From NCBI GenBank assembly GCA_052327205.1, contig CM126216.1, positions 70,370,001-70,434,000 on the forward strand: a DNA stretch of 64,000 nucleotides, written 5' to 3'. The position numbers were made by a program, and so were the translations under genes. The notes below the pieces were generated by a model, which saw nothing but the letters and a program-made list of their open reading frames with translations, made no database searches and was not told the DNA's origin. The DNA is from Somniosus microcephalus. Its lineage: Eukaryota. The first letter of the stretch is position 1. Each line of letters opens with the position of its first letter. Shown here one piece after another: positions 1,434 to 27,999 of this stretch.

Positions 1434-4400
1434 CTACCTTTTGGTCCGCAGCCGCCGAACAAGGAAGAGTCGCACCCGTTTGGATTCCCGTCGTAGAGGG
1501 TCGCTGGTCCGCTTACATGCGGTTGGCCATTGGCCAGAGTCCGTGTGGCCTGGATTGCCCTGTGAAGGGTCGGGGAGATCATGGCTTCGAGTACGAGCCC
1601 CAATAGGTTCAAAGTCAGACTGCCTCTGTTCAGAGGGAGGTGCAGAGCTGGTCTGTGGCAGACCAGTACTTTCATGCGTGGTACTGGGAGGGTCGCAACC
1701 TTGAGCACGGGGTTCTACCGGCACCAAGCTAGTTGGTGTCCGATCAGGATCCTGGAGAGGGGTACCCGATAGGTCCCAAGAGTTTCCTGGTGAAATGCCA
1801 TCACCCGATGTCCCACTAGGTCCTGGTGGGCAGGGAGCCAGATCCCGTAATGATACGGTAGATTCTCGGCCGTCGGAATATCGTATGTTTGCATAGGTGG
1901 GGTTGGCATCGGTTAGTTCGACCTCGTCTACAAGAGGGTCATTTTTAGACGTCCGAACGTATCTTCGGAGTAATACAGGTCCAGGAGTAGTTAGCCATGA
2001 CGGGAGTGATGTCCCATGAGATGAGCGACGCTGGAATCCAAAGAACCGCTCATGAGGTGTAGTATTTGTGGCTGTAGAAAGCAGGGACCGTATAGAGTGC
2101 AATGCATCCGGAAGCACTGTTTCCCATTGCTGGTCTGGTAGGCCCCGAGATCTTAAAGCGAGACGTACGGAATTCCAGATGATACCGTTATACCTCTCTA
2201 CCTGCCCATTTCCGATGGGATGGTATGGTGTTGTTTTGCTTGTAGCAATTCCCCGTTCTGAGAGGTAGTCCTTGAGTTCCCTCGACATAAAGGATGGACC
2301 CCGATCTGAGTGAATATAAGCCGGCATGCCACAGAGAGAAAATACCTGCTCAAGGCAGGAGATTACTGTGGACGCCAGCATATTGGAGCAGGGGAAGGCA
2401 AACGGAAAACGTGAATATTCGTCGATCATGGCGAGCAAATATGTGTTCCGAGTTGAAGAGGGCACTGGGCCCTTAAAATCGATGCTAAGTCGTTGCATCG
2501 GTTGGGTTGCATGTATGAGTATACCATCTGAGGGGCGGAAGAACTGAGGTTTTAATTCCGCACAAAGCCGGCATTCTGAGCATATTTTCTTTACATCTCC
2601 AGTGGAAAAAGGGAGATTCCGTGATCGTACGAAATGTAGCATGCGCGTAACGCCAGGATGGCACAAACCATTGTGGACATCCATGAGGGTGGAGGATGAC
2701 ATAGTGGAGCAGAATGCCCGTGTGAGGGTGTCCGGGGCCACATTCTCCTTGCCAGGCCGATAGAGAATGGTATAACCAAAAGAGGCCAGTTCCATCCTCC
2801 AAAGTTGTATTTTATTATTCTTAATTTTGGTTCGTTTTCGATTATCGAGCATGAAGGCGACTGATCGTTGGTCCGTGATCAATGTAAAGTGCTGGCGAGC
2901 TAGAAAATGGTTCCACTTCCGTACTGCCTCTATGATGGCTGTGGCTTCTTTCTCAACCGGAGGATAATGTAGCTCGGCACCTTGTAAGGTCCTGGACATA
3001 AATGCTACAGGACGACCTTCCTGATTCAGAGTAGCCGAGATCGCCACCTCCGAGGCATCACATTCAACCACGAAAGGGAGATTCTCATCAATGGAGTGAA
3101 GAGCCGCTTTCTCCAACTGTTTTTTGAGAAGGTTAAAGGCTGCAACAGCCGCTGTTCCCAGTGGAAATGATCTAGCATGCAGCAAGGGTTGGATTTTGTC
3201 CGAAAAATGAGGAATCCATTTAGCGTAGTATGCAAACAGACCGAGAGCCCGACGTAAAGAAGCCGGATTCTTAGGTGACGGGAGCTCATGGAGCGGGCGA
3301 AGTCTTTCTGGGTCTGGCTTAATGATACCATTGCCTACGCAGTAGCCAAGGATGTTGATGGTCGGTTGCGACTCAACAGATTTGGATTCATTCAGGGTCA
3401 AATTACGGCGATGGAGGGCATCCCGAAATTTTTGGAGGTTGGAGTCGTGTTCCTGTTGATCGTGACCTGCAATGGTAATGTTATCAAGATAGGGAAAAGT
3501 GTCCCTTAGGTTTTCCTGCTTAACCAGGCCATCCATTGCCCGTTGAAAGACAGCCACTCCATTAGTAACCCCGAATGGGAGGCGACGAAATTGGTACAGC
3601 CGTCCATTAGCCTCAAAGGCTGTGTACTGCTTATCTGAGACCTTCAAGGGTAACTGATGATAGGCACTTTTTAAATCGTAAGTTGAGAACACTTTGTATT
3701 CGGCCAGTTTATTAACCATATCATCAATGCGTGGCAATGGGTAGGCGTCCAAGTCGGTATATTGATTGATGGTTTGCGAATAATCGATGCATAGTCGCTG
3801 TTTGTGAGGTTTTAGAGGGTTCTTGACAATGACGACTTGAGCCCGCCAGGGCGACGAACATGGTTCAATGATATCCTCTGCTAGAAGTCGAGAGATTTCA
3901 GCCGCAATAAAAGATTGGTCTTCCTGATTAAAGCGCCGCGATTTCGTTATTATCGGTTGGCATTGAGGCGGAATACTGGCAAATAATGAGGGTTCATCAA
4001 GTGAAGCTGCTGATAATGCACAAAATGGTAATTTAGACGGTATATTAGAAATAATAAGTCCGGGTTTGGATCCACCAAACTCAATGGTGAGTTTCTTATG
4101 CTGTTTTTGGAAGTCCAGTCCTAAGAGGAGATCACTACATAAGTCCTTGAGCACCGAAAGTCGGGTGGAGGGATACATACGACCATGAAGTGTCATATCA
4201 ACAACACAAAAGCCGGAGATTCTGGTATTAAGTGATGACTGGGCCATCGCAATTGCCTGGTCCGATGGGAAGACATGTAGTTTCAATTTCGCAACAATCT
4301 GTTCCTTAATGAAACTATCAGTACTTCCTGAGTCAATTAAGGCATCTAAGGTATGCCCTTTAATTGAAATTTTTGTGGCAGCATGAGACAGGTTCTGTGG

Positions 4401-21005: not shown

Positions 21006-23455
21006 AGAGTCCCTTTCATGACCTCAGGGCATCCTAAAGCGCTTTACAGCCAATTAAGTATTTTTGAAGTGTAGTCATTGTTGTAATGTAGGAAGGCGGC
21101 ATGAGGCATGTGCAGTAGTGTTGCAAATAGTCACATTAAGTCAAATCATAAAAGACCCATAAATTGAATGTAAACCTCTGCTGTGGCTCCTTAATGGTTC
21201 AGTGGGAATGATGTGGTACTCGGCCAGACAGTCCAGTTAAGCCTTGGGTTCAATTTCACGTCTATGCAGTCAGCTGATCTCTACCAGAGCAGCAGTGGTG
21301 GCTATAATTAACCTCAATATCCTTAGGTTACATCGGGAGGAAAAAAACAGAGCTCCCACTCTTAACCTACATCCAGTGAACCCTGCTGGAAAGTGCACAC
21401 GTGAAAAAGCCAGGATTGAGCTCTTCTGTGATGTCCCAAGTCAAAAGAACTGCAACTCAGCATGAATTATCTCTTCCAGGTGATAAGGGGAGGAAAATGG
21501 AGGGAGGTGAGAGAGAAGAGAAAAACTGTAGGTATAGTATCAGCAAATATCTAATGGGACCTTTGAAATCAATTGATTGATGTTACAACAAAAGAAATGA
21601 ACCAGACTAAAAATTGTGTAAAAACAATTGTTTTTTTTCCTATGATTATATTATTGTTATTGTCAAGGACACGGGTTGGCATCTTGATACAGACATATAG
21701 AGAGAAAAGAAAGCAACAATAGAAATGCTACTCCCAACAGAGAGACAGAAATAGAAAATTACACACATCTAATTTTTCTTGTATTCTGCACATTTCCCCG
21801 TGTATTTCCTCAGTTTTTAAAAAATATTCAAGCACCAAGGATCAAAATCTCATAATTGTTTAATATTTTCATACTTTTTTGGTGCATTCTCATTTAGTGC
21901 ATGTATACAGTAAAAGACAGAAGTTACTAAAATACAAGACTTGGTGGAGGGGGTAATCACAGGCTACAGAAGAAATTCCGACTGTGATCGAGGGTCACTG
22001 CTAATATTTCAGGCTCAGATCAAAATTGGTTGCACTTTCTTCCCCTAATGGCTGAGTGGGTAAATGCTGCTCTGGGTGTTGTACTGAACTTTAAAGATCA
22101 GGAAGGTTCTGGGTTTGGCCTTTGTCCCTGCCGAGTAGACTGACCTCAGCTGGGTACCAGTAAGAACACTCAGTTAGGGTAATTTTGACTTTGTGCAAAA
22201 TGGGTGATAATAGAAACATAGAAACATAGAAGATAGGAGCAGGAGTAGGCCATTCGGCCCTTCGAGCCTGCTCCGCCATTCAACGAGATCATGGCTGATC
22301 ATCCAAACCTTAGCACCTGGTCCCTACACCGACAGCCATCCCACCCAAGCCCTATCCCCGTAACCCCACGTATTTAATCCCCCCTAACACTAAGGCCCAA
22401 TTTTTATCATGGCCAATCAACCTAACCTGCACATCTTTGGACAGTGGGAGGAAACCGGAGCACCCGGAGGAAACCCACGCAAACACGGGGAGAATGTGCA
22501 AACTCCACACAGTCACCCGAGGCCGGATTTGAACCCGGGTCCCTGGCGCTGTGAGGCAACAGTGCTAACTGTTGTGTATGTAATATGTGTGCTACTTTGA
22601 ACCTATGGACAGGACTGCACTACTTGTAGGGCGTAGTGATACGCAGTACCACTCCTGGCCATAGGGGTATAAATAGTACTGTGGGTACTGATCTCCCCTC
22701 AGTTCCCGCCTGTGGGCATGAAGTAAAGACCTACGTATAGTCCCTACCTCCAACCAGTAAAGACCTGTTTGAGTTATACGGTTAAGTCTTTGTGTTAATT
22801 GTTCAATACAATACACATACTTAACACTGGCGACGAGTCAGGTTCTTACCCTGCGGCAGTTGAAGAGAGGTTTCAATCATCACCACCCCACTAGAAGCTA
22901 CAGGCTTTAGGACTCTGAAGCCTCCATCAGCGACTGAGCACTGGAGTGCAGCAGCCATCCTGACAGCTTCCAGCGACTGACAGAAGTCTTTCTGCAGTTT
23001 CCTTGTTCAACCTAGGTGGTGGGGTAAGCCGTGCAGCGTCGGCTGCAAAGACAGGGCTGGGGAAGTTGGAGAAGATAAGGGCGATCGCAATCCCTGATAA
23101 GAGCCGCGGTGAAACGCGCGAGCGGGTGAGCCAGAGGCCGGGAGCCGCTTCAAGTGCGAGGCGCAGCGCGGGCCAGCGATCGGGACCAAAGATAAGGGCC
23201 GCACTCGGACTGAAAGGCGCGGCGGCTGCAGAAGCTCAAGGTGCGAGAGCCGCGGTGCACAGCGCGGGCTATCGATCGCGGCGAAGATAAGGGCCGCACT
23301 CGGGGGCTGAAGGGAGACGGCGTCGGGGGACGGGTGAAGACCGCCAAGCGCGGGAAAACCGCCATTTTGTGGGCGGAGGACGACGGCAAGAGCGGGAAGC
23401 CGCCATCTTTGATAACAAGTAAAGAAAATAAAATCTGAGAAATTGCAAATCTACA

Positions 23456-24703
23456 ATGCCTAAACACGGGAATATTAGCACCTTTGATAGTGACCTCGAA
23501 GATTGGGCCATATATGTTGAAAGAGTAAAAAATTATTGTAAGGCCAATAAAATTCGTGACCAAGATAAAGTTCTAACATTATTAAATTTAATGGGTGCGA
23601 AGACATACGGGCAATTGAAACACCTGTTATCACCAGATGAACCGGCGGATAAGACGTTCGATGAGATTGTTACTGTCCTGAAAGATCATCTAAACCCCAC
23701 GCCGCTGATGCTAGCGGAACGATTTAAATTTTACGACAGAAGGCAGCTGCAGCATGAAAGCAATGCTGAATATTTGCTGGAATTGCGTCAATTAGCGAAA
23801 TATTGCCAGTTTGGAACGGGACTGACAGATGCACTACGAGACAAATTTGTGTGTGGTTTATTTAAACAGGATACACAAAAGCGACTGCTCGAGGAGAATG
23901 AGCTGACGCTTGAGAAGGCGGTCACTATGGCAGCAGCACACGAAGCCGCAGCGAGAGGCACGGCAGTAATGCAGCTACGGTCACCGGAGCTCAGTGCACA
24001 CAAATTGGGTGTGAGTTCTGTTAAATGTTATCGTTGTGGAAAGACAACGCATGATCAGAACCAGTGTTGGTTTAAAAACCAAGAATGTAGAACTTGTGGT
24101 AGGCTTGGACATATAGCTAGAGTATGCAGGTCAGGGAAGAAGACCAGCAACAAGAAGTCACCGCAAGGAAAATACGCAAAGGTACACAAGGTGACCGAAC
24201 AGGAGTCCGATTCAGACGCTAGCAGTAATGAACTGGCTAGCTTAAGCTGTAATGAACTGGCTAGCTTAAGAGTACTCAACGCTGGTAAGGGTGCAGACCT
24301 CCAGACAATTTGGGTCACTCTTCAGATAGAAGGAGTCCAAGTAAAACTGGAATTGGACACTGGATCGGCATTGACGGTCATAAATAAGAAAGATTACGGA
24401 AGGTTATTCCAACATATTCCCCTACAGGATACGGGGATTATATTGAAAACATACACGGGGCAAAGAGTGTACCCCATCGGGAAAATAGAGGTTGCAGTGG
24501 TCCACAAGGGCGAAGACAGTCAAATAATGGACTTATATGTGATATCTGAAGGAGGTTCTCCACTACTAGGACGGGAGTGGATTAGGAAAATGAATATGGA
24601 CTGGCATTTCCTACAAACAATAACGAGTGAGAACTCGGTGAAGATAGTCGGCCCAGACTCTGGAACGGATGATGGTAAGCCCAACTCAGGTGCAAAAGAC
24701 AAA
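23456..24703 (+). CDS. Gag-protease, 5' part of the chimeric ORF (interrupted by a MITE at 24704)
   Basis: Mag-type Gag (WAIYVER, ERFKFYDRRQ, LRDKFVCG); knuckles CYRCGKTTHDQNQC and CRTCGRLGHIARVC; protease LDTGSA..LLGREW. Confidence 0.92.
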
Positions 24704-25390
24704 GGCCTAGAAATTGAGTTTGCGCTGCGCCAGGGCTTTAGCGCCGGAAGTTAGCGCCGGCGCTAAGTCCCTTTGCGCGCGCCAAAAATTCAGTAGCGCC
24801 GCGCCCAAACGGCTGCCGGCGCTACTGAAGGGTTTTAGCGCCTGAAAACTGGCACAACGCGCCGCATTGCGGCGCTATTCCGGCGCTGCGGCGCCCGCTG
24901 CGGTGCGGCAGGCTCGGGAAGTGCAGGCCTCCTCCTTCCGTTAAGGAGGAGCTGCCTGCACCCGGCCGCGGCCCGCGCAAATCTCTGAAAAAATGAGCCC
25001 GGCACCTCGGACAAGTGCCGGGCTTGCATCTGTTCCGGGGGGGGCGGGGGGGAGAAGTCCGGGGAGGGAGCTGCGGGCAGGCGGCCGGCGGGAAAGCGGC
25101 CGGCTGCCGCGCCTCCTTAAAGCGCCGGCGCAGACTCCGGCAACACTCGTTTGCTGGAGTCTTAGTTGCGGCTGCCACTGGCGAGGCGGCCGCAACTGAA
25201 TTTCGGCTTGGGGCCGGGTTACCACGGCAACCGGGACGCTGCGCACACCGATGACGTCATCGGTGCCGGCGCAGCGCTACCGGTCTACCGCCGCGGAAGG
25301 GCCCCAGGCAATTTAGGAACCGGCGCCAATTGCAGCGCTAGGCCCTCTAGCGCCGCAAAATCGGTGCTAAGGGCACTGAATTTCTAGGCC
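24704..25390. mobile_element. Harbinger-type MITE, 687 bp, very GC/CpG-rich
   Basis: Perfect 12-bp TIRs GGCCTAGAAATT/AATTTCTAGGCC; 3-bp TSD AAA (24701-24703, 25391-25393). Confidence 0.92.
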
Positions 25391-25393
25391 AAA

Positions 25394-26362
25394 GTTTCAG
25401 CACAGAATTCCACTGAGCAACAACAACATAGTTTAACTGTGGATTCTGAGTCTGGCAAGTCTACTGATGTGCCCATTTCTGAGGGACACCGGGCTCGAAC
25501 TCAACTCCATTTCAAACTACAACAGCAATTAGAACAAATGCTTCGCTGTTTTGAGCAAGAGTTGAATGCAACGAAAGAGTTCTTTGATATAGAGTTGGAG
25601 AATCTGGAAAGACAACAGAAGCAGCTGATGGAGAAAATGGAGCAGGAGCACACAAAACGTCTGATGTCAGAGGAGTTAACGGTCGGCCAACTCCTGCATA
25701 TGCTGAAGGACAGGACTCTGAAATGGGAAAAACTTGAACACGAACTTCAATATTCAAACGAAAGGGGTTCGGAGCTCTCAAAGGTTATTGGAAGAGCTGA
25801 GGTGGCAACACAGACTGAGATGACTGCAACAGAGCAACCCTTGGATGCCAAAAGTACGCTGACTCACGTCAACGTAGAACAACAGACCGCTGAAACAGCT
25901 GCTCCGGTAGAGGGATTGAATAGTCCGATCAATCAATCTCCAAAAGAAGTTGAAGTAGTAAAATCTCAAATGAGGTCATTAGTAAACGACTTGCTGAAAG
26001 CCCAGAAAAAGCTGGATGAAGAGGTACGCATGAAGAAGTCTCTTCAGGAAAGATGTCTGGACTTGGAACAAAAGCTGGCTAACGCCCAGCTGGGTATGGA
26101 GGAAATAGAAGACCCTCTCGCTGGCCTAGATCAGGACGACACCGAATATTACTATGTCCTGTCCTGCCCAACTTGTAACTTCGACTCCCACCATACAGAA
26201 ATCATGGAGGAGCACCGAAAGTCTACGGAACATCGGGAGAAGGTGGCTCTACTACGGAAAAAGGAGGAAGAGAAGGAGGAACTGCGCATGCAGCTGGCAG
26301 CTGACAGTGGAGCCCAGAGAGTCTCCAAGAAGCAGAAAAGGAAAAGTCGAAACAGAAGATGA
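25394..26362 (+). CDS. 3' part of the chimeric ORF: STK10/SLK-like coiled coil, optineurin-like coiled coils, C2H2 finger, basic tail
   Basis: In frame with gag-PR once the MITE and one TSD are removed. [34 protein letters not shown] is STK10-like; [14 protein letters not shown] and MKKSLQERC are OPTN-like; CPTC..H..H finger. Confidence 0.8.
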
Positions 26363-27999
26363 CCCATCTGAACCATTATTACCTCTACCAGATCACGCAC
26401 GTGGTCCCTCCGAACGGAGCCAATTCAGTTCGGAAGTTCAAACTGTTAAATCCATGGAAGGACTATTGAATGAGTCACTCCAGCAACGTGAACCGACTAC
26501 ACCACAGAGATTGAATCTGTGAACTGTTTTCCGCAGAGACTGAATCTGTGATCTGTTTTGACATGAAGTTATCTATGTATCTATGTTATTCTGTTATGTA
26601 AACCTGAAGTTATATATGTATATATGTTATTACGTTATGTTAAATGGGGAGATGACTGTAAAGCTAGGAAGGGAGGAATGTTGTGTATGTAATATGTGTG
26701 CTACTTTGAACCTATGGACAGGACTGCACTACTTGTAGGGCGTAGTGATACGCAGTACCACTCCTGGCCATAGGGGTATAAATAGTACTGTGGGTACTGA
26801 TCTCCCCTCAGTTCCCGCCTGTGGGCATGAAGTAAAGACCTACGTATAGTCCCTACCTCCAACCAGTAAAGACCTGTTTGAGTTATACGTTTAAGTCTTT
26901 GTGTTAATTGTTCAATACAATACACATACTTAACACTAACCACTCTGCCACCGTGCTGAATCGGCAGCTCATTTTACATCTCTCCTGACTTTGAATTAAT
27001 GGAAATAAAGATCAGGAGAGATGTAAAACGGGCTGCTGATTTACTATCACCCATTTTACACTATCGCACAAAGTCAAAATTACCCCCAGTGTATCTAGGC
27101 CAAGAAGGAATCATCCTGGCTTTCTGCTCCTGATTGCTGTTTAATGACCCTAGCTGGAAAGAGCATATGTGGCTGGCAGGTCAGGACAGGATCCAGCTCC
27201 ACTGTGATGTTCTCCAGCCCATTTGCCAAATAGCCTGCCAGCACTCACAAGGCTCTAATATTAAGAATGGGTGAGGTATCAGAGGACTGATGACACTCAT
27301 GAAAAGGCATCTAAGAATTAGACAACACCTTCATGAGGAGGAGGGAGAAAATTAGTTGCACAAATGGGGGGGGGGGGCATCTACTTCTGAAAAACAAAAT
27401 GCTGTGCATAAACGGGACTCTGTCAAGTGTTCTGAAGTGTGACTTTGCACCATTTGTTGCTTCTCGGAAAAAAGACAAAAATGTCAAAGTGCAGTACACA
27501 TCATTACTGTACATTTGAAACAAGCATTCCATAACAGGTCAAATTCTTTCCCCTGGCCACCAATGTGTCAATGTGTTTTCAGAGTTTTTTTTAATGGTTC
27601 TGTTTCTCTTCTCTTTCGCATTTCCATCCTTGCTCTTTGCTGGCAATTTGTATTATAGGAGTTGTAAAACCAGGAATTGAAGCTAAGTTTAATTTAGTAT
27701 GCACATTCTAATTTTTAATATAAAACCTGTATGAATAGTTAAATAATGAGTAATTAATTAGATCTAAGGGTATAAAATAAACTAAGTAAAAGATACCAAT
27801 ATTAAAGGGATCTGAATAACATTAAATAAATATCTGGTGTACACAAATAATAAATAGGAAATAATCAGAATAATTACAAATTAATTTGATATCAATCTAA
27901 TCCATCAACTAATTAATATTAGACCTCAAGCATTTTTATTAGCTCTGGAGATAAATTGCTGCTAACAATAAACAAATAAATAAAGATTAGATATGACAG

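Follow-up and report, generated by a model that had tools for sequence, protein, structure and literature searches.

How does a retrotransposon that lacks a polymerase gene come to carry pieces of host genes in frame with its gag, and what keeps that frame open? The question is raised by an element at 22570..26935 of a 64,000-nucleotide stretch of the Somniosus microcephalus genome (assembly GCA_052327205.1, contig CM126216.1, positions 70,370,001 to 70,434,000), here called the window. The element is one copy, and a late derivative, of a Gypsy-type non-autonomous long terminal repeat (LTR) retrotransposon family with at least 6,249 copies, which are inserted equally in both directions (3,110 vs 3,139). 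The original prediction, made from the letters of the window, held that pol had been replaced by sequential capture of host mRNAs through template switching, and that selection acts on the resulting fusion protein. Comparison of copies across the genome makes it likely that the host sequence, or cargo, was indeed captured by template switching, that the first cargo was one turn of a circular RNA, and that the cargo is kept as a translated spacer and not as a functional domain.

The STK10 cargo and its circular signature

Three host genes have contributed to the cargo: STK10, OPTN and DNAJC21. The simple form of the family, with STK10 only, is present in at least 858 copies with the exact junction described here and is laid out as LTR, gag and protease (gag-pro), STK10, integrase tail and LTR, with a single open frame in 10 of 16 copies fetched. 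Its cargo consists of five STK10 exons (a to e) in permuted order, joined donor to acceptor at exact splice sites, such that the last base of host exon e (before GT) is fused to the first base of exon a (after AG). In all 47 loci scored in an STK10 search, amino acids 376-704 are followed by a piece that begins again at amino acid 290 (290-389). The cargo is 98-100% identical to the host exons, and its span of 1,245 nt is the sum of the five exons, which is one turn of a back-spliced circle that holds no stop codon. The chance that both cargo ends fall at exon ends is about 1.5e-4. In the window copy, the back-splice junction has been overwritten by OPTN, and only the permuted order remains.

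The autonomous parent of the first capture was found through the 5' flank of the cargo. Among 27 matches to this flank with a continuation other than STK10, 12 were examined; eight run into reverse transcriptase (RT) and four are mutated cargo copies. Full parents (L095, L097) are 5.1-5.4 kb long and have protease, RT, RNase H and integrase in that order, without env, and parents L096 and L099 are 94-98% identical to the non-cargo parts. The capture replaced 2,650 nt of parent by 1,245 nt. No "empty" deletion intermediate without cargo was seen among the 12 of 27 pattern matches examined or among 14 longer fetches.

Both switch points can be mapped on the parent. At the 5' switch, the start of the parental RT region and the STK10 site share a perfect 11-nt microhomology, the best in the circle (the next reaches 8 of 11), and at the 3' switch the parental integrase tail matches the same STK10 site at 7 of 9 nt. 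The codons L-D-E are in frame at all three first-capture sites, two in the parent and one in STK10. Because both parental sites resemble the same STK10 site, a colinear linear mRNA could not have supplied the cargo: entry and exit at one site capture nothing on a colinear mRNA and one full turn on a circle. Template switching is supported by the absence of introns, by microhomologies of 7-13 nt and by the recovery of both intermediates and parent. The capture of spliced RNA by switching therefore stands, but the first capture bears the signature of a circular RNA and not of an mRNA.

In the proposed course of events, RT copying the autonomous element would leave it at the integrase tail for a back-spliced STK10 circle packaged alongside, which with its five exons and 1,245 nt is frame-neutral, go round once, and jump back at the start of the RT region, to leave gag-pro, one turn and integrase tail in one frame. 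The switching would have taken place inside the particle, and exit after one turn may have been forced by RNase H cutting the template.

Three points weigh against this account. The 3' microhomology is weak, with three places in the circle tied at 7 of 9; no inverted repeat pairs were found between the introns that flank the circle; and the closed STK10 circle is a putative template, deduced from DNA junctions. The last two would suit a linear source equally, given that an RNA with exons a-e twice, whether trans-spliced, exon-repeated or transcribed from a since lost ancestral tandem duplication, yields the same product. Such a source is nonetheless improbable. At the host locus, 80 kb of DNA without gaps holds a single copy of each of the five exons, no STK10 sequence from outside the five exons and no poly(A) was found in any element examined, and exit after exactly one turn would fit a template consumed by RNase H.

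Three further observations were made on STK10 sequences. The intron that follows host exon c (L068) appears to start with GC, not GT. An intronless copy of STK10 3' coding sequence at G000:C3:354658271-354658948, 97% identical and outside the circle exons, is probably an ordinary retrocopy. A decayed full-length relative, about 70% identical in gag and with a frameshifted pol (L069-L070, G000:C8 ~167.208-167.213 Mb), sits within the 15.5-kb intron that immediately precedes the acceptor exon of the circle.

Later captures and exchange of gag-pro

The coils that had been described as STK10-like and OPTN-like proved to be specific matches and not generic coiled coils. The closest proteins all come from sharks and rays, with a match to OPTN of 69% over amino acids 83-240 and matches to STK10 of 77-78% in two separate pieces. 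The host genes for STK10 and OPTN were found in the genome, and the cargo tracks their exons with the introns gone. Searches of the 3' frame against the PDB gave chance coil matches only, and a search of 50%-representative proteins gave nothing beyond OPTN- and STK10-like proteins. The C2H2 finger and basic tail noticed in the window are also present, but their identity as a third captured gene, DNAJC21, had been missed. A less diverged version in L047 matches at 69%, with the DNAJC21 set of Pfam domains in all 54 matches, and the basic tail of the window copy matches protein P0157 over 10 residues. The finger gives a Pfam match in L047 and L128 and none in L008. In host DNAJC21, the first four exons were found and the finger exon was not found in the 60 kb beyond; a genome search for that exon was swamped by element copies, so intron loss is established for STK10 and OPTN only. 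Relative to the element copies and to protein P0002, host OPTN (G000:C17 ~85,884,790 and ~85,885,360, L079) carries two additional bases, placed in short runs near one exon boundary, which are either sequencing errors or a sign of a frameshifted host gene.

The OPTN-bearing forms, of which 20 were fetched after being picked for long frames, have a common in-frame STK10 deletion and carry OPTN inserted over the permuted junction, with microhomologies of 9 nt and 12/13 nt at the OPTN junctions. Some of them add DNAJC21 inside the next STK10 exon, and the window type, which terminates in the DNAJC21 tail, has undergone three additional deletions. Along this series, identity to the host falls from 98-100% in the simple form to 94-99% in the OPTN forms and 80-93% in the window type. 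These nested architectures suggest that STK10 was captured first, OPTN second and DNAJC21 third.

Other lineages hold other cargo. In L144 (3061-4047), a 924-nt in-frame insert with three I-set immunoglobulin (Ig) domains lies in the STK10 exon after the back-splice junction, and there is no OPTN; this cargo is titin/obscurin-like. Further in-frame coiled-coil cargos occur in another lineage (L125:2690-3400; L116, L121, L122, L130), and the L125 piece is present in at least 40 copies at 99-100% identity. Protein atlas searches with two of these coils returned generic coiled coils only, and DNA searches for their host exons returned element copies only among the best 40 of 2,155 candidates; EVI5 and ANKRD24 are candidate donors of these coils. 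The donors shuffled into the family would include at least the three named genes and two or three more. No Gag-STK10 fusion proteins were seen among the best 120 of 2,592 protein matches to the simple form, which says little on other sharks, as gene sets mask repeats.

The cargo also appears to have moved onto another gag-pro lineage. The window gag is 92% identical to that of a second autonomous subfamily (L097/L103) and 77-79% identical to that of the first-capture subfamily; gag and protease together reach 92-95% identity with the second subfamily, compared with 76-84% for the first subfamily and the earlier cargo forms. A tree of 40 natural gag-pro stretches, which did not include a one-clade test, joins the window type to the second subfamily (100/100) and every other cargo form to the first. 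In the L116 type, the synonymous divergence (dS) of gag-pro is about four times that of the cargo, which suggests another gag-pro import. No match to the window LTR over its full length was found among the fetched parents.

Descendants of the first capture would have been copied in trans by autonomous relatives, taking up OPTN and then DNAJC21, or in other lines Ig domains and further coil pieces, while losing pieces by in-frame deletion and recombining onto other gag-pro lineages.

The open frame and selection on the cargo

In the window copy, the long frame is disrupted by a miniature inverted-repeat transposable element (MITE), and a single 738-amino-acid open reading frame (ORF) had been predicted to result from its removal. 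Here the frame was read from natural copies. Among 29 other loci, taken from the best 40 of 1,523 candidates, the MITE site is unoccupied in 18, of which 14 have an open stop-to-stop frame of 738-749 amino acids. In L008, AKDK and VSAQN are joined in a single frame of 738 amino acids from the Met. Both the predicted frame and the MITE-free copies to be sought genome-wide thus exist in nature. An unselected sample, made of the first 32 of 6,249 junction matches, on one contig and not picked for frame, has the MITE in none of 32 copies and an open frame of 724-1,025 amino acids from the Gag start in 21. The LTR pairs of this sample are 98-100% identical in 26 of 27 measurable copies. Tandem copies with a common LTR also occur, as does one member inserted back-to-back into another (L016/L017, L127/L128, L124/L125).

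Selection was analysed on 93 loci (98 tried, with L049 not parsed and four duplicates dropped). For changes present in two or more copies, the ratio of nonsynonymous to synonymous substitution (dN/dS) is 0.87 in the cargo (235 nonsynonymous, 105 synonymous; p 0.23 vs neutral) and 0.32 in gag-pro; in the 31 unselected loci, the values are 0.85 and 0.26. Seven pairwise comparisons give 0.72-0.97 for the cargo. Shared and private changes in the cargo are alike in dN/dS (p 0.87-1.0) and in BLOSUM scores (p 0.40). The test of dN/dS that had been suggested for the captured part therefore fails to reveal the expected constraint.

Stop codons follow another pattern. In the unselected sample, shared stops in the cargo number 0 against 10.4 expected (P 3e-5), and in all 93 loci 1 against 14.3, the one being a CGA to TGA change in two unrelated copies. 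The cargo has passed through about 250 shared substitutions without a stop, over 10-20% divergence from the host along lineages. A hand tally of the unselected sample finds the frame kept in 12 of 12 shared rearrangements that lie upstream of the terminal piece, and indels of single copies are often out of frame, whereas shared ones are not. Judged from these substitutions, the open frame appears to be selected and the amino-acid sequence of the cargo not detectably so. The selection claimed for the fusion protein would then hold for the frame and fail for the captured sequence, which evolves close to neutrality.

It is very unlikely that the cargo is under no selection at all, and that its frame reflects young copies and microhomology switching that favours in-frame joins. 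The near identity of the LTR pairs and the in-frame L-D-E codons at the first-capture sites fit such an account, as does the finding that young LTR retrocopies in flies keep the frame in 82% of cases (PMC5131818), but neither the missing shared stops nor the confinement of out-of-frame indels to single copies does.

A reason for an open frame may lie in RNA decay. In 20 open copies, the stop is 150-400 nt from the polypurine tract, and protease ends about 1.1-2.0 kb upstream of the stop. The open cargo would move the stop to near the purine tract, and an early stop would add 1.1-2.0 kb of untranslated RNA and expose the transcript to nonsense-mediated decay (NMD). Rous sarcoma virus gag RNA needs a stability element to escape NMD, and long retroviral 3' untranslated regions are described as needing protection (PMC2925335). 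Most likely, the element encodes the Gag and protease that serve its RNA and relies on RT and integrase made by others.

Several points count against selection for translation, or soften it. Avoidance of NMD, although the most likely reason for the open cargo, is argued by analogy with retroviruses. One shared rearrangement among all loci is out of frame (L062 and L063, in an A run), and a null of one in three is too harsh, since joins made through microhomology between two coding sequences are inclined to keep the frame in any case. Single-copy changes in the unselected sample are also short of stops (1 in 158, against about 6 expected). The probable cause is that several copies stand alone in their subfamily, which makes shared changes harder to tell from private ones; private stops in the A group, the star-like simple form, come close to the expected number, at 4 in 121 changes against about 5. 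The low dN/dS of gag-pro (0.11-0.32) is confounded by import from autonomous elements, as in the same pairs gag-pro exceeds the cargo in dS by a factor of 2-4, and no difference between the two is seen in the young window subfamily (p 0.43).

Alternatively, the cargo could be selected as protein, as the original prediction held, with generic coiled coils taking the place of RT to dimerise or pack with Gag-protease, or with the OPTN and STK10 coils serving as decoys for proteins of the host. The cargos are mostly coiled coils, the frame is kept and the RNA is sense. Changes to proline are, in raw counts, somewhat rarer among shared (9 of 193) than among private changes (21 of 218), and shared changes in the A group have a dN/dS of 0.42 (11 nonsynonymous, 10 synonymous, p 0.049), on small numbers that are partly host-side. 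This explanation is nevertheless unlikely, given the overall dN/dS of the cargo and the likeness of shared and private changes. The cargo is freely deleted and swapped, one lineage having Ig domains without OPTN. The OPTN piece lacks both the N-terminal NEMO-like part and the C-terminal ubiquitin-binding part, and the DNAJC21 finger degenerates in the window subfamily. Retention of the cargo as a translated spacer is the reading that we carry forward.

Transcription of the family

The family is transcribed in sense, as seen at the RNA level. Two RNA runs from organism B (X23 and X24) place 12,237 and 15,634 reads on a 4.7-kb stretch that includes the flanking repeat and the MITE, with all bins covered, and contigs of organisms A and C also cover all bins. 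In X23, sense reads exceed antisense about 10-fold across the ORF, though copies are inserted equally both ways; X24 looks unstranded. The MITE-free junction was read 84 and 140 times in the two runs. No RNA holder of the simple form was listed; host STK10 makes up 78% of that query, so the shares do not show the element.

Structure of the window copy

The features of the window element and its immediate borders are as follows.

22565..22569, + strand: target-site duplication CTAAC, left copy, 5 bp
22570..22826, + strand: 5' LTR, 257 bp, TG...CA
22828..22837, + strand: primer-binding site (PBS), a 10-nt complement of the CCA end in a tRNA-like sequence
23456..24313, + strand: gag, with two tandem CCHC knuckles
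24314..24624, + strand: aspartyl protease (LDTG) and linker
24625..24702, + strand: STK10 piece 1, amino acids ~400-426 of P0023, 88% to the host exon
24704..25390, no strand: PIF/Harbinger-type MITE, 687 bp, AAA duplication
25391..25485, + strand: STK10 piece 2, amino acids 448-479, 85% to host
25481..25662, + strand: STK10 piece 3, amino acids 616-677, PKK coil, two host exons joined at the splice junction, 91-93% to host
25655..26106, + strand: OPTN piece, amino acids ~227-384 of P0002, four host exons joined, 80-91% to host
26116..26353, + strand: DNAJC21 piece, degenerate C2H2 finger and basic stretch, boundaries approximate, 10 residues identical to P0157
26354..26474, + strand: STK10 piece 4, amino acids ~327-354 and 374-389, the part of the circle past the back-splice junction, downstream of the stop and in another frame
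26475..26559, + strand: remnant of the integrase C-terminal tail (SLQQREPTTPQRLNL) with a 29-nt duplication
26666..26678, + strand: polypurine tract, abutting the 3' LTR
26679..26935, + strand: 3' LTR, 257 bp, TG...CA
26936..26940, + strand: target-site duplication CTAAC, right copy

The LTRs, target-site duplication, PBS and purine tract are as intact as had been described, and the two LTRs differ by one mismatch. The long frame ends with the stop codon at 26360-26362. Pfam finds a zinc knuckle and an aspartyl protease, both under the curated cut-off, and the PKK coil of STK10/SLK in the 3' frame (E 4e-8). The reported absence of RT, RNase H and integrase core is confirmed, with no Pfam match to them in the window copy and no pol match at the element. 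The integrase tail seen in another frame is real, but it is not alone there: the frame at 26130-26522 also holds a further STK10 piece, which lies upstream of the other pieces in the host gene. The gag has two tandem CCHC knuckles, and the Mag clade is a candidate placement for the element within Ty3/Gypsy.

The PBS-like sequence TGGCGACGAG begins one base past the 5' LTR, and its putative cognate is tRNA-Ser(GCU). Rfam gave no match in the region. The same 10 nt recur at locus L146, where T-arm sequence follows; neither ARAGORN nor Rfam found a whole tRNA there. A tRNA 3'-end pattern has 526 matches in the genome, and the one that was read (L146:1490-1527) is a CCA-bearing tRNA 3' half beside an LTR-like end, which is an unusually long PBS of another element.

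The window element is inserted at the 3' end of a repeat that resembles a short interspersed element (SINE), and the flanking sequence recurs at other places in the window. At 22177-22212 and 27042-27085, inverted repeats of 20 nt surround the SINE-like repeat and the element, which together appear to be nested inside another MITE-like element. On the minus strand, positions 2022-3908 of the window hold the decayed RT and integrase of an unrelated LTR element, about 30% identical to P0060.

The 687-bp insertion at 24704-25390 has terminal inverted repeats and AAA on either side. The AAA site (24701-24703) also holds insertions in 11 of the 29 other top loci (L002, L004-L007, L016, L017, L020-L023), a set skewed towards insertions by the first bases of the query. 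These insertions lie in both orientations, are 82-98% alike or unrelated, and belong to several families. One related insertion at the site (L021) encodes a DDE_Tnp_4 transposase (E 3.5e-38), which, with the short terminal inverted repeats and the 3-bp duplication, places the MITE with PIF/Harbinger elements. The AAA target lies at a deletion junction specific to the window subfamily, and the MITE is a later accident at an insertion hot spot.

Relation to known systems

In transducing retroviruses with v-onc genes, pol is replaced by gag-fused host sequence, and the virus depends on a helper. The shark family resembles them in the replacement of pol by gag-fused host sequence and in its dependence on a helper, but it has no env, its captured STK10 lacks the kinase domain, and no amino-acid constraint of the kind that marks a functional retrogene was detected on its cargo.

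LTR-mediated retrocopies in animals, as described by Tan et al. 2016 (PMC5131818), are alike in that internal ORFs are replaced by partial spliced host RNA, with microhomology at the switch points and several parent genes per element, and in that they are re-amplified as non-autonomous elements, often in frame. The shark family has these features: introns are absent (STK10, OPTN), an ORF is replaced, and microhomology, co-transcription and re-amplification are present. Unlike the retrocopies of that paper, which occupy one to few loci each and in whose main text the word "circular" is absent, the family has at least 6,249 copies, living intermediates, a parent, swaps of the gag-pro chassis and a permuted first cargo.

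The mouse circRFWD2 pseudogenes (Dong et al. 2016, PMC4897178) likewise place a non-colinear back-splice junction in the genome, without poly(A), and with LTR sequence nearby (MMERVK10C-int in a figure legend). The simple form of the shark family shares the non-colinear junction at exact splice sites, the restriction to circle exons and the lack of poly(A), and has no tandem copy. The mouse sequences number 33-42 copies, are seen as pseudogenes, and have a mechanism that the paper calls mysterious. In the shark family, in contrast, the circle lies in a complete LTR element, in frame with gag-pro and as one turn, with both switch points mapped on the parent.

Maize Bs1 (PMC13317346, PMC5131818) is also a non-autonomous LTR element, with three host-gene pieces in one chimeric expressed ORF. 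As those sources describe it, Bs1 differs in that it is present in one to five copies with a single, fixed set of switch points, carries one of its pieces out of frame, and has a proposed host function and no circular template. The copy number of the shark family is three orders of magnitude higher.

A shark preprint (10.1101/2024.09.09.611499) describes OPTN copies that are likewise intronless, fuse several exons and lie within 1 kb of an LTR or long interspersed element. They are listed there as lineage-specific gene duplicates; STK10 and DNAJC21 are absent from its main text, and no element is described in it. No published description of the family was found, in a search outside subscription journals, repeat libraries and supplements. 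The novelty lies in the combination of a whole circle turn in gag-pro with mapped switch points, serial in-frame capture, and the copy number.

Implications

On balance, we favour a history in which one whole turn of a circular RNA in the gag-pro frame founded an in-frame exon-shuffling platform of more than 6,000 copies, in which selection keeps translation and not sequence, although some lineages may use their coils. The family offers a concrete mechanism for the retroposition of circular RNA, left open by the circular RNA pseudogene paper, with parent, switch points and one-turn product in one genome. It also separates an open, expressed frame from a functional protein, two things that are usually merged in work on retrogenes. 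With thousands of natural copies, with and without early stops, the idea of NMD avoidance can be tested from RNA-seq. Finally, intronless, expressed "duplicates" of OPTN, STK10 and DNAJC21 in shark annotations may be transposon cargo and not adaptive duplicates.

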